Source of the DNA: Chloroflexota bacterium
Lineage (GTDB): Bacteria; Chloroflexota; UBA6077; SHYK01
NCBI GenBank assembly: GCA_035652535.1
Contig: DASRDP010000082.1
Coordinates: 52,384-116,383 of the forward strand
DNA length: 64,000 bases
Direction of reading: 5' to 3'
Shown: positions 49,061 to 56,419 of the stretch, piece after piece
How positions within the stretch are numbered: the stretch's first letter is position 1
How the letters are laid out: each line of letters starts with the position of its first letter
Program-made: the position numbers and the translations under genes
The notes under the pieces: model-generated
What the model was told of the DNA's origin: nothing
Database searches by the model: none
The model's input: the letters and a program-made list of their open reading frames with translations, nothing else

Positions 49061-49239
49061 GGGGCCTCCCAGACGAAGATACCGACCGCAGCATGGCGGG
49101 CTTGGGCCAGAGTATCCGCGTCCGCGCCCGGGGGTCAAGCGAACCCGTGATGCGCGCGTCGTCCCAGATTGGGAGAACGAACGCCGGCTCCACGCGTCCG
49201 TCCGCCACACGGCGACGCCGCGGGCGGGCGGTTGGCGTC

Positions 49240-49701
49240 CTAACCCAGCGCTTTCAGCGCCTTCGTCGGACTCTCGGGCGCCTTCACGTTGTAGGCGACT
49301 TCGGCCAGCTTCCCGTTCTCGTCGATGACGAAGTGGCTCCGGACGATCCCCATGTACTTCTTGCCCATCATGGACTTTTGCTGCCAAACGCCGTACGCCT
49401 CGGCAATGGCATGGTCCCTGTCGACGAGAAGCGGAAACGGCAGGCCGAACTTGTCGCGAAACTTCACGTGTGACTGAGCGCTATCCGGGCTGACGCCCAG
49501 GACGACCGCGTTCTTCTGGCTGATGGCCGCGTAATGGTCGCGAAACCCGCACGCCTGGGTCGTGCATCCGGGCGTATTGTCCTTGGGGTAAAAGTAGATG
49601 ATGACCCGTCTTCCGCGCAGGTCACGCAGGCGGATCGTGTTGCCCTTCTCGTCGGCTGCCTCGAAATCGGGCGCCAGGTCCCCCACCTTCAGCTCCGCCA
49701 T
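49240..49701 (-). CDS. bcp: thiol peroxidase Bcp (peroxiredoxin Q)
   Basis: 'FYPKDNTPGCTTQACGFRD'. AAAGGAGG RBS 8 nt upstream. Confidence 0.9.
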   Translation of the reverse strand: MAELKVGDLAPDFEAADEKGNTIRLRDLRGRRVIIYFYPKDNTPGCTTQACGFRDHYAAISQKNAVVLGVSPDSAQSHVKFRDKFGLPFPLLVDRDHAIAEAYGVWQQKSMMGKKYMGIVRSHFVIDENGKLAEVAYNVKAPESPTKALKALG

Positions 49702-49751
49702 GCGGATCAGCCTCCTTTTCGTTGGTTTGTATTTGGCCGGCGATCATTCTA

Positions 49752-49831
49752 GGGCAGCGTCTGCCCGTTCGCCTTGAACCCGTCGACGGGCACAACAGGA
49801 TCGGCCGTTCGCCCTGAGCGCGTCGACGGGC
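49752..49831. repeat. GGGCAG-cgt-CTGCCC hairpin followed by two tandem ~29-bp direct repeats (period 40 bp), each with a GTCGAC-centred palindrome
   Basis: Copy 1 at 49763-49791 is 'gcccgttcgccttgaacccgtcgacgggc'. Copy 2 at 49803-49831 is 'ggccgttcgccctgagcgcgtcgacgggc'. They are 25/29 identical. Copy 1 holds the perfect 12-bp palindrome CCCGTCGACGGG. Confidence 0.55.
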
Positions 49832-53341: not shown

Positions 53342-54187
53342 ATGAGCATGGACCCCGTGCCCGCCGCCCCGTGCCACCGAAGCCTCTCGGCATTCTTTCC
53401 GTGTTTCAACGACGCGGGGACCATCGCCTCGATGGTCATGGAAGCCCTCACCGTCATGCCCGAGCTGACCGATGACTACGAGGTCGTCGTCATCGAGAAC
53501 GGCAGCACCGACTATGCCTGGGACGTGCTGGACGAGCTGGAGCGGCTCTACGGCGAGAACGGTGTCGACCCGCAACATCGCGGCCGGGTGCGCACGATCC
53601 GATTCAGCCAGGCGCTGGACTACGGCGGCGCACTCCGCGCCGGCTTCGCGTCGTGTCGCGGCGACCTGATCTTCTACACGGACGGAGACGGCCAGTACGA
53701 CGTTCGCGAGCTGCGCGCTTTGTGGGAAGCGCTCCTCCGCGAGGAAGGGGCCGGGCGGCAGGTCGACGTGGTCATGGGGAACAAGATCACCCGGCGGGAC
53801 CCGCTCCACCGGCGGCTCATTAGCTGGGCGTACCACCATTCGATGGCGTTCGTGTTCCAATTCAAGGTGCACGACGTGGACTGCGACTTTCGGCTCATCA
53901 AGCGCCACGTGTTCGACCGCGTGCTCCTGACTCAGAACACGGGCGCCATCGCCCTCGAGCTGATGACGAAGGTGCAGATGGCCGGCTTCCGCACGGTGGA
54001 GGTGCCCGTTGATCACTTCCATCGGGCGTACGGCGTCTCACAGTTCTTCCACGTGCGGCGCCTGATCGCCGTCGCGATCAGCCTCGCGAAGCTCTGGTGG
54101 TGGCTGCGCGTTCAGAATGCACCCGGTTCCCCTGCGCCGCTGCCGGAGCCGCTCCCGCCCGGCGCCCCGCGGCCGGTGGTGAACTGA
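53342..54187 (+). CDS. family 2 glycosyltransferase (polyprenyl-phosphate sugar synthase-like)
   Basis: 'FFPCFNDAG...VVIENGSTD...DGDGQYD' GT-A DXD architecture. Confidence 0.8.
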   Translation: MSMDPVPAAPCHRSLSAFFPCFNDAGTIASMVMEALTVMPELTDDYEVVVIENGSTDYAWDVLDELERLYGENGVDPQHRGRVRTIRFSQALDYGGALRAGFASCRGDLIFYTDGDGQYDVRELRALWEALLREEGAGRQVDVVMGNKITRRDPLHRRLISWAYHHSMAFVFQFKVHDVDCDFRLIKRHVFDRVLLTQNTGAIALELMTKVQMAGFRTVEVPVDHFHRAYGVSQFFHVRRLIAVAISLAKLWWWLRVQNAPGSPAPLPEPLPPGAPRPVVN

Positions 54188-54259
54188 CGGTCGGAAACGG
54201 GAACGGGCCCGCCGTCTCCTCGTCAACGTTACGATCCGCATCCGCAGAGAAGCGCGGGA

Positions 54260-55090
54260 TCAATGCGAGTCGTGGCCTCTTGGGGTCTCGCCTCGGGACG
54301 GCAATCCTGGCTGGTCGTGTGTCAAGAAGTCGAGTAGTCGCTGGCGCTCCGACCACGCGATCACTGCATCCGCGTAGTTTTGCAAGACGTGGGCGGGAAT
54401 TCCTTCCCAGACGGCGCTCGCGCGTTCACCGCGATCGTCAAGCACCGCGATGCCTTGCGCCTCGGGATGGACGCGCTTGATATCACCCCATTTGAATACC
54501 AGGCGCTCGGCCTTTGCCTGCGCTGAGCTCTTGCTGCTTGCCGATACAGGATCAACGAGGCGATTGCCTCTACTGTTGAGATGAAAAGCTACCTGGTGGT
54601 CCTTGGTCGCCCCAGCAATCGAATACCCGCGGTCATACTGGAGAGAACCGGCGATCAGGAGCTTCTCTACCTCGTCGGAAAAGTTCGTGACTGCGCGCTC
54701 GGCACGACGAAAGACAAGGCATGAGGCCTCATGAGCAGCCGAAATTACGTGCTCAAGTGCCTCTCCAGCCTGATTCGCGGCCACGATTGCCACAAGCTCG
54801 CCATCCTCGAAGCCCACTGCAAAGCGACGCGCAATCCGATGCACCTGACGGAGGTGGTTCGGATTCTTGAAGATTTCCAGCCCATTAGCGAAGAGGTAGT
54901 CGATGGACTCTCCGGCATCTGATATCCGCAGCCGCCCGTCTGGGTCTTGGGCCACGGTGATCTCGATTGCCTCACCGTCCGGGCGGGAAAACGGGCAGAT
55001 GATGACACAGTATTCACCAAACTGCTCGCTCCGAAAGCTCCCGCGCAGCCTGGATATGAACTCATCAACCGCATTGGTGCAGGCGCTCAT
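54260..55090 (-). CDS. hypothetical protein, third gene of the low-GC cassette (possibly DUF1828/DUF1829-like; uncertain)
   Basis: 276-aa ORF in a region clearly lower in GC than its flanks. Its ATG overlaps the stop of the upstream gene (ATGA). The track ORF extends 18 codons further, to 55144. Confidence 0.5.
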   Translation of the reverse strand: MSACTNAVDEFISRLRGSFRSEQFGEYCVIICPFSRPDGEAIEITVAQDPDGRLRISDAGESIDYLFANGLEIFKNPNHLRQVHRIARRFAVGFEDGELVAIVAANQAGEALEHVISAAHEASCLVFRRAERAVTNFSDEVEKLLIAGSLQYDRGYSIAGATKDHQVAFHLNSRGNRLVDPVSASSKSSAQAKAERLVFKWGDIKRVHPEAQGIAVLDDRGERASAVWEGIPAHVLQNYADAVIAWSERQRLLDFLTHDQPGLPSRGETPRGHDSH

Positions 55091-55515
55091 GGACTCCTTG
55101 GCATCAACTGGAACTGATACGTACCTGTATAGCGGATTTTGCACTCGGCGAGGAAATCAAGCAGCGCTTGATCCGGGTTGTCCCAGTGCATGTCGTCCGG
55201 CACGTATGCCCAGCCGTCCTCGTCGTTCTCGTCCCACCGGTGTTTGTGGGGCTCTCCGATGTGCTGCCCATCGGGGTTCGTATGCTGAAAATGGAGCGTG
55301 GCTTTGCGAATCGGCACACCCCGCCACAGGAGCGCGTAGCTGTAGTTCGTCTTGCCGCGGACGCCTTTGAAGTCGAGCAGTTCGGACGTGTCGGGGGCCA
55401 ACACACGTGCCTCTAGGTAAAGGCGACCCTTCGCGCTGGAGCGCGAACTCCAGCGAAGCGTGCTGGTGATCACTTTGTCCGCTTTTAGAATGGCCTCGAC
55501 CTCCGCGTTCGTCAC
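55087..55515 (-). CDS. hypothetical protein, middle gene of the low-GC cassette
   Basis: 142 aa with GTG start overlapping the stop of the upstream ORF (GTGA). His/Asp/Trp-rich C-terminal half 'HFQHTNPDGQHIGEPHKHRWDENDEDGWAY'. Confidence 0.45.
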   Translation of the reverse strand: MTNAEVEAILKADKVITSTLRWSSRSSAKGRLYLEARVLAPDTSELLDFKGVRGKTNYSYALLWRGVPIRKATLHFQHTNPDGQHIGEPHKHRWDENDEDGWAYVPDDMHWDNPDQALLDFLAECKIRYTGTYQFQLMPRSP

Positions 55516-55847
55516 TGGCTGGACGGAGTCGCGAAGCTCGCGGGAAACCCCACCGTGTCGACCGCAAGCTGCCTGCCATCACGGAGGCGAAACGGGGCGG
55601 TGATCACTGAGCGGGCCTCGCTGAAGCCCATACCTTCTCCAAATGGGCTTAGAGCTTCTCTGACTCCCAGGAACACTTCGATCTTGCCGGGTTGCTTCCG
55701 CAGATGTTGAGGTGTCATTTTACCGTCGCCGAGAATATCCCGCGCTAACGTGGCGAATGACACTCGCCCAGCGCTTGCCGTGTCAAACTTTGAGCCGCTC
55801 CGTTGGCATTGTCTATTCCACGCACCCGTCGCGAGCTTGACTCGCAA
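55512..55847 (-). CDS. hypothetical small protein, first gene of the cassette (TTG start; may begin at an internal ATG, giving 68 aa)
   Basis: ORF translationally coupled to the next gene. No recognisable motif. Confidence 0.3.
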   Translation of the reverse strand: MRVKLATGAWNRQCQRSGSKFDTASAGRVSFATLARDILGDGKMTPQHLRKQPGKIEVFLGVREALSPFGEGMGFSEARSVITAPFRLRDGRQLAVDTVGFPASFATPSSQ

Positions 55848-55895
55848 TCGAGTGCGCGGGCTGTCGCAGCCGCGGCGGTGATGGCGCGCGTTTCG

Positions 55896-55942
55896 TTGAC
55901 TGCTTCCCGCCCGACCCCTATACTCGCGGCAGAACGGGCCGC
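55896..55942 (+). promoter_or_regulatory. sigma70-like promoter TTGACT-N17-TATACT upstream of the cupin gene
   Basis: 'TTGACTgcttcccgcccgaccccTATACT', ~35 nt before the AAAGGAG RBS and ATG of the cupin ORF. Confidence 0.45.
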
Positions 55943-55969
55943 ATGAGCGCGTGCGCGAAAGGAGCAGCC

Positions 55970-56419
55970 ATGGCAGTGTCAGCCCGACCCAAGGCGGAAG
56001 TCTTCTCCCTCAAGACGCCCCTCCTCTCCGCGGGGCGAACCACCACCTTCGTCTCTCGAACCGACCTCATGTCCATCGCCATCAAGGTGTACTCCGAGGG
56101 TGGGGAGAACGCGCCGCACACGCACCTCGCTGAGGATCACGCCTTTATCGTCCTCGAGGGCGAGGCCACGTTTTATGACGAGAACGAGACGGCGACTGTG
56201 GTCAGCAAGTACCAGGGGATTACGCTGCCCCGCGGCGCGTACTACTGGTTCAAGAGCACGGGCGACTGCAACCTGGTGCTCCTCCGCTGCGGCGCCAACG
56301 TGCCGGGCCACAAAGGCGATAGCCGGATTGATCCGAAGGGCGATCCGCTACCCGGCGAGTCCGAGGCCAACAAGCACATCGTTGGGGTCCCGATCCCGGG
56401 AAGGTTCTTCGGCGAATAG
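55970..56419 (+). CDS. cupin-domain protein
   Basis: 'ENAPHTHLAEDHAFIVLEGEATFYDENE' two-His cupin motif 1, and 'PRGAYYWFKSTG' motif 2. RBS AAAGGAG before the internal ATG. Confidence 0.7.
   Translation: MAVSARPKAEVFSLKTPLLSAGRTTTFVSRTDLMSIAIKVYSEGGENAPHTHLAEDHAFIVLEGEATFYDENETATVVSKYQGITLPRGAYYWFKSTGDCNLVLLRCGANVPGHKGDSRIDPKGDPLPGESEANKHIVGVPIPGRFFGE

Follow-up and report, generated by a model that had tools for sequence, protein, structure and literature searches.

We investigated a small low-GC gene cassette in a 64-kb stretch of DNA from a Chloroflexota bacterium (contig DASRDP010000082.1 of assembly GCA_035652535.1; the whole stretch is called the window here). A preliminary description of this DNA, made from the sequence alone, had presented the cassette as three translationally coupled genes and as a candidate for an undescribed toxin-antitoxin, abortive-infection or anti-phage system. 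We find that only two of the three open reading frames (ORFs), genes A and B, are supported genes, and that the pair is a member of PDC-M24, an already catalogued candidate defence family. Gene A encodes a DUF6978 protein and gene B a DUF1828/DUF1829-type protein. Judged by profile comparison, the DUF6978 family looks distantly akin to the TumE (DUF6516) superfamily, as a branch of it with an invariant His-x-His motif in common. We see about an even chance that the pair is a self-contained, horizontally acquired, toxin-antitoxin-like operon, possibly acting by abortive infection, with A as the toxin and B as its neutraliser or sensor.

Both proteins match the PADLOC models of PDC-M24. Protein A matched PDLC04533 (PDC-M24A) with an E-value of 2e-17, its residues 1–134 aligning to profile positions 2–140 of 151, and two more PDC-M24A models were also matched. 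Protein B matched PDLC04540 (PDC-M24B; E 1.8e-24, profile positions 10–254 of 256) and PDLC04539 (PDC-M24B; E 7.5e-24), as well as two PHROG families of unknown function. The M24A and M24B hidden Markov models (HMMs) are both matched at full length, and gene A directly precedes gene B on the same strand (A>>B), as in catalogued PDC-M24. The “PDC” models of PADLOC derive from Payne et al. 2024 (bioRxiv 10.1101/2024.01.29.577857), a set of 145 candidates, none of them assayed, in which PDC-M denotes multi-gene candidates obtained by guilt-by-embedding. PDC-M24 was nominated from instances inside BREX, DISARM or type I restriction-modification (RM) systems, and corresponds to cassette CAS_00098, FAM_00129>>FAM_00065, with 153 instances (Payne et al. 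2024). FAM_00065 (M24B) is also paired with FAM_01408 in 15 instances, and a three-gene variant, FAM_00129>>FAM_00065>>FAM_00027, has four (Payne et al. 2024, supplementary file 8); these other partners hint that the DUF1828/1829 protein is modular. Because the pair is catalogued as PDC-M24 and DUF6978 is a Pfam family, the cassette is not the undescribed system it had been taken for. Unlike the catalogued PDC-M24, the window copy comes from a Chloroflexota genome and is not in or near any defence system.

The pairing of A and B is conserved well beyond the window. In each of the eight loci that we compared (the window and L005–L011, Table 1), B is the next gene after A on the same strand, at a spacing that varies between an overlap and +53 nt. 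When loci are compared in pairs, the identity of A co-varies with that of B (r = 0.96, 21 locus pairs), and in 20 of these 21 pairs A is better conserved than B. Both window ORFs are intact and keep every conserved residue, and the window copy is at most 64–72% identical to any other sequence found. A-B pairs were found on plasmids, in a temperate virus and in chromosomal islets of bacteria and archaea. The pair in virus Humcor1 indicates that the module is also virus-borne and crosses the divide between bacteria and archaea. The gene 5' of A differs in every related locus. In two unrelated loci, the bacterial metagenome contig L005 (59–3967) and L009 (42–3941), it is a ~1300-aa type IIG RM/DrmMI-like gene directly upstream of A>>B; in L007, the pair is near a BrxH/DrmD-like helicase and ParE, and in L006, an MNT-HepT gene is located a few kb away. 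The RM-, BREX- and DISARM-type neighbours of these relatives fit the way in which PDC-M24 was nominated. We also observed that the DUF6978 gene of pNYT2 (L009:6001-6411; CP019157.1 28509-28919) is an intact 138-codon ORF with no coding sequence listed in the gene table of this plasmid.

Table 1. Features of the cassette (window coordinates) and related loci carrying the A>>B pair
Feature or locus	Coordinates	Strand	Description	Basis or setting
Gene A	55087..55515	-	142 aa, GTG start; DUF6978 / PDC-M24A; putative TumE-superfamily toxin	
Gene B	54260..55090	-	276 aa, ATG start; DUF1828 + weak DUF1829 / PDC-M24B; putative neutraliser or sensor	
A/B junction	55087..55099	-	ATGA stop/start overlap 55090-55087; AAGGAG (Shine-Dalgarno) 55099-55094	sequence
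ORF3	55512..55847	-	unsupported ORF; TGA overlaps the GTG of A as GTGA 55515-55512	
Low-GC segment	54260..55850	.	presumed horizontally acquired; cassette + upstream leader	GC, GC3
L005			metagenome locus, 64% A identity, closest relative	type IIG RM gene upstream
L006-L008			three loci at ~34% B identity	
L009			Haloarcula taiwanensis plasmid pNYT2 (CP019157.1)	
L010	5998-7181		temperate tailed Halorubrum virus Humcor1 (MW344765.1)	pair between orc1 and PadR regulator
L011			Acetobacter plasmid pAOF1	

Protein A matches the Pfam family DUF6978 end to end (E 1.2e-13). Members of this family are rare: a search of 1.84 billion representatives yielded 236 clusters at E <= 1e-3. The C-terminal half of A had been noted as rich in His, Asp and Trp, and it does contain 6 H, 9 D and 3 W, whereas the first half has 0 H, 3 D and 2 W. 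This half is the conserved core of the DUF6978 family. The structure model of A is alpha+beta, made up of two helices and an antiparallel sheet of about seven strands, and has no match in the PDB; sequence searches of the PDB with A, B and TumE profiles also returned nothing significant. Domain fusions of DUF6978 were not informative. One large protein (P0052, a 1336-aa fibronectin-III repeat protein) matched A with an E-value of 3.8e-16, spread over 11 short stretches, and was rejected as a repeat/compositional false positive rather than a fusion.

Pfam Toxin TumE (PF20126) is matched by 4 of 70 DUF6978 members and by protein P0163, with a best E-value of 8.8e-6. For comparison of the families, the TumE set consisted of eight annotated DUF6516 genes from plasmids (L012–L019), retrieved with a DUF6516-like sequence that served as bait only; all eight fetched proteins score above the Pfam TumE gathering score. 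An hhalign comparison of DUF6978 with these eight sequences gave a P-value of 2.9e-4, a score of 27.6 and a probability of 40%, where the usual standard is 90%. Reversed profiles scored 14.5–15.8, and 30 column shuffles scored at most 16.4. Five secondary-structure elements follow one another in the same order in both families. The alignment pairs a (Y/F)-x-L-L-Y motif, I-R-x-x-D with (Y/F)-D-N, and H-K-H with H-(R/K)-H, and further A-Y with P-Y and, in the C-terminal helix, F-L with D-F. The TumE HMM recovered ~50 of 150 DUF6978 representatives at E < 1, with ~1 expected, and the DUF6978 HMM recovered five of the eight TumE proteins at E < 0.05. It is this family-level profile comparison, new in the present analysis, that ties DUF6978 to TumE; the DUF6978 family was built from “dark” component 11182, separate from TumE component 159 (Durairaj et al. 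2023). On these sequence grounds, DUF6978 is probably a true remote homologue of TumE.

TumE has been described as having two helices packed on an antiparallel sheet of seven strands, a fold not matched in the PDB, and was predicted to be an ester hydrolase (PMC10584680). TumE toxins block translation: expression of TumE arrests the growth of E. coli and lowers 35S-Met incorporation, the cognate partner neutralises it, and an RNase activity has been proposed and is unproven (PMC10584680). The same study allowed TumE toxins “diverse unrelated antitoxins” and placed the TumE gene predominantly downstream of its partner (PMC10584680). In the plasmid TumE loci that we fetched, the gene for the toxin precedes that for its partner in 8/8; it overlaps a ~115–175-aa partner by 4–14 nt in seven, and a 6-nt gap separates the two in the eighth. 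TumE-TumA appears to resemble A-B in several respects. As far as its model shows, A is small and alpha+beta like TumE, with a similar set of helices and strands and likewise no PDB match, and the hhalign alignment gives both an R-x-D ... H-x-H ... Y ... F core. A-B is bicistronic, with the putative toxin first and an overlapping partner, much like the fetched plasmid loci, and both systems occur on mobile elements in bacteria as well as archaea. Compared with TumE, A is ~45 residues longer at its N-terminus. The A-B pair also has the general appearance of a type II toxin-antitoxin system, as two small, co-directional, overlapping genes with a patchy distribution and an association with mobile elements.

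Protein B, the largest of the three, was correctly suspected to be of the DUF1828/DUF1829 type: it matches DUF1828 with an E-value of 1.6e-9, and its DUF1829 match is sub-threshold (21.0 vs 22.2 bits). The structure model of B has two domains (predicted local distance difference test score, pLDDT, of 82). From this model, the N-domain appears to be type III secretion system (T3SS)-chaperone-like and the C-domain restriction-endonuclease-like; fold hits were assigned to the domains from aligned lengths and topology, not by a per-domain search, and every Foldseek match of B had an E-value above 0.001. No secretion system surrounds B that would go with a type III secretion chaperone or YbjN-DUF2170-like fold. 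The C-domain model contains the alpha-beta-beta-beta-alpha-beta core fold of the PD-(D/E)xK superfamily. Compared with proteins of this fold (PspGI, the Can2/Card1 nuclease domains, AF1548 and XisH), to which its identity is 5–15%, B has no conserved catalytic D...(D/E)xK in alignments of 13 and 15 sequences. The position of the beta2 Asp varies (KD / ES / GH), and beta3 reads (D/Q/E)-P-V-S, with no Lys. D218-D219, which follows beta4, is invariant or nearly so, and R220 is also conserved in the 13-sequence alignment; the active site may have migrated elsewhere. Because a canonical catalytic triad is missing, the C-domain is more likely a nucleic-acid-binding or regulatory module that binds DNA rather than cuts it. 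Neither CARF nor any other sensor domain that is known is attached to B.

A DUF1829 domain is also present in DS-6B, the antitoxin-like, non-toxic protein of DS-6/HipAD, a defence system with a HipA kinase that has been validated, and DS-6B is predicted to bind both toxin and DNA (PMC13092281). HipAD (found by DefensePredictor; a HipA-like kinase with a DUF3037-DUF1829 partner) resembles the window cassette in having two genes and a DUF1829-type partner. Unlike HipAD, the cassette has neither a HipA kinase nor DUF3037, its DUF1829 match stays below the threshold, and the N-domain of B is DUF1828.

Genes A and B overlap by 4 nt on the minus strand, and the ATG of B is directly preceded by the Shine-Dalgarno sequence AAGGAG. 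Both start/stop overlaps reported previously, GTGA and ATGA, are present at the positions given in Table 1, and the tight coupling holds. Of the three genes proposed, A and B stand; ORF3 does not, having no homologue, no family and no consistent call. It matched no family in Pfam, PADLOC, NCBIfam or PHROGs, and the only homologue among 5.8 billion protein clusters was its own 83-aa call on an identical contig. On identical contigs, ORF3 is called as 39 aa, as 83 aa or not at all, depending on the gene caller. Its GC content is flat over the three codon positions (GC1/2/3 of 0.61/0.54/0.63). There is no counterpart of ORF3 5' of gene A in any of the seven other loci, and tblastx of the region upstream of A against these loci gave chance-level matches only; in L005, the stop codon of the RM gene is 12 nt before the start of A. 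ORF3 is thus outside the conserved system. It is more likely the 5' leader/promoter region of the A-B operon, or an upstream ORF (uORF), than a gene, and the leader possibly holds a uORF or a remnant. The 427-nt leader has no Rfam match at E <= 1, and its predicted RNA folding is not unusual (z -1.16). The only sigma-70-like promoter match in window positions 54000–56200 is at 55896–55924 on the plus strand (TTGACT, 17-nt spacer, TATACT), 19 nt 5' of the cupin ATG at 55943. No sigma-70-like match for the A-B operon was found on the minus strand of the same region, and no terminator-like site was found.

The base composition of the cassette is foreign to its surroundings, as first described. 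The low-GC segment has a GC content of 0.592 vs a mean of 0.673 for the 64-kb window, of which it is the global GC minimum at the 1.6-kb scale. Sliding 1.59-kb windows have a standard deviation of 0.021, and just 0.02% of them are as low. GC at third codon positions (GC3) is 0.75 in gene A, 0.66 in gene B and 0.63 in ORF3 vs 0.83–0.90 in eight flanking genes, so that both GC and codon usage differ from those of the neighbouring genes. The flanks are higher in GC than the segment, as had been stated, but range from 0.64 to 0.72 in 300-nt windows rather than being uniformly near 70%. Since GC is back at the host level on both sides (0.716 at 55848–55942 and 0.667 at 54188–54259), the foreign segment spans ~1.6 kb. 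A second, milder dip in GC (0.60–0.63) was observed at window positions 49200–49800, over a Redoxin/AhpC-TSA gene (L001 15815-16276, corresponding to window 49240–49701).

The locus comes from a metagenome-assembled genome, and identical copies of it are present on four public contigs. In one assembly (L002, on a contig of GCA_037024555.1), the cupin gene seemed to have lost 135 nt in frame (equivalent to window 56014–56159), but this proved to be a run of N and not a biological variant. All genes within ~10 kb of the cassette in the window are metabolic or transport genes. As the preliminary description had it, no mobilisation boundary is visible: there is no tRNA in the 64-kb window, the gene table lists no integrase or transposase within ~10 kb, and the flanks contain no meaningful direct or inverted repeats. 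The best match to the neighbouring SBP_bac_5 substrate-binding protein in the genome collection is 62% identical (best tblastn segment 64%), and the best match to the neighbouring GT2 protein in metagenomes is 81% identical (82% by tblastn). Scans with these two genes found no relatives with the same flanks minus the cassette, synteny being already lost, and no A or B near any of the matches. We therefore presume that the cassette was horizontally acquired from its composition and patchy distribution across both domains, and not from an empty site.

We assign the role of toxin to A and that of partner to B because A is the slower-evolving protein, because its family is related to a proven toxin, and because the DUF1829 partner is non-toxic in HipAD. 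We infer that A is toxic, that B neutralises it, and that a trigger releases it with an anti-phage effect. In such a scheme, A and B would be co-transcribed from the low-GC leader, and B would be translated by coupling to A, as the overlap and the Shine-Dalgarno sequence suggest. The chaperone-like N-domain of B, suited to gripping a polypeptide, would bind and silence A, and the restriction-endonuclease-like domain may keep the two proteins on DNA, which would serve autoregulation or the sensing of invading DNA. Infection, a phage- or stress-derived cue, or loss of B would then free A, whose His-x-His site would attack a component of translation, probably RNA, and growth would stop.

Several observations weigh against this reading. 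The window protein A itself matches DUF6978 only and has no match to Pfam TumE at the gathering score, and its E-value of 0.019 against the eight-sequence TumE HMM is not significant alone. The hhalign probability falls well short of the usual standard, and the alignment is limited to the C-terminal ~70 residues of A. Unlike TumE-TumA, where the partner is a ~120-aa DNA-binding protein, the partner of A is a 276-aa DUF1828/DUF1829 protein. There is no Shine-Dalgarno sequence upstream of gene A, no defence gene is found in the gene table within ~10 kb of the cassette, and our literature search found no experimental test of PDC-M24. Finally, the nuclease-like fold of B means that B could be the effector. 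With the roles so reversed, infection would activate B as a nuclease of the PD-(D/E)xK type, and A would regulate B, act as its sensor or confer immunity to it. We regard this as quite unlikely, as B has no conserved D...(D/E)xK, no Lys in beta3 and no Foldseek match at or below 0.001, whereas A is the more conserved protein and kin to an experimentally toxic family, and the DUF1829-containing protein of HipAD is the non-toxic partner. The absence of a Shine-Dalgarno sequence for A, together with the position of its GTG on the stop codon of ORF3, lends some weight to the view that ORF3 encodes a third component specific to this lineage, such as a small antitoxin or a regulator, that is translationally coupled to A. 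ORF3 also fills exactly the upstream part of the low-GC segment, and two gene callers call part of it. Such a three-gene system is nevertheless improbable, given that ORF3 has no homologue but itself, no match in four libraries, flat codon-position GC, conflicting called lengths (0, 39 and 83 aa) and no upstream partner in the seven other loci.

The pair may instead be selfish, an addiction or stability module, or may serve a virus or plasmid in superinfection exclusion, and have landed in this chromosome without anti-phage benefit for the host. This alternative shares its mechanism with the toxin-antitoxin-like defence operon and differs from it in benefit only. It agrees with the presence of the pair on plasmids pNYT2 and pAOF1 and in a temperate virus beside orc1, with the foreign composition of the window copy and its place among metabolic genes with no defence neighbours, and with the status of PDC-M24 as a predicted defence candidate only. 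We still consider it unlikely: RM and BREX/DISARM-type genes adjoin the pair in three of six independent relatives, the instances that led to the nomination of PDC-M24 were embedded in systems of the BREX, DISARM or type I RM kind, and both window ORFs are intact with all conserved residues present. That there is no system at all, just two unrelated housekeeping or hypothetical genes in a low-GC patch, is scarcely credible. An experimental function of DUF6978, DUF1828 or PDC-M24 was not found, and the literature we searched gives no function to either DUF and does not discuss PDC-M24. However, the strict pairing and co-divergence in bacteria, archaea and a virus, the rare and patchy family and the foreign codon usage all speak for a functional unit, and a housekeeping annotation for the proteins was found in no library.

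Before this analysis, PDC-M24 was one of 145 predicted defence candidates, and neither protein had a functional lead. The toxin-antitoxin or anti-phage class originally suggested for the cassette agrees with the PADLOC PDC-M24 matches of both proteins and with the remote relationship of the A family to TumE. The cues of composition and overlap rightly flagged a mobile toxin-like module, and the terms “three genes” and “undescribed” were over-readings. The TumE link turns a pair of DUFs into a concrete hypothesis, in which A is toxic, B rescues, and His90/His92 are needed. The added value is thus a testable proposal of a TumE-like toxin with a chaperone-like/restriction-endonuclease-like partner. 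We tentatively extend it, as a possibility we hold somewhat short of even, to the family as a whole: DUF6978/PDC-M24A may be an unrecognised deep branch of TumE in which the small DNA-binding antitoxin was swapped for a two-domain partner, a T3SS-chaperone-like clamp joined to a catalytically degenerate restriction-endonuclease fold, that both neutralises A and senses the DNA or protein of an invader, and that serves abortive infection in bacteria, haloarchaea and their viruses. DUF1829-type proteins are suggested as modular partners for different toxins; if the extended proposal is true, the DUF1829-type partner would be a reusable antitoxin/sensor that serves two or more unrelated toxins, among them the HipA kinase and a TumE-like protein.

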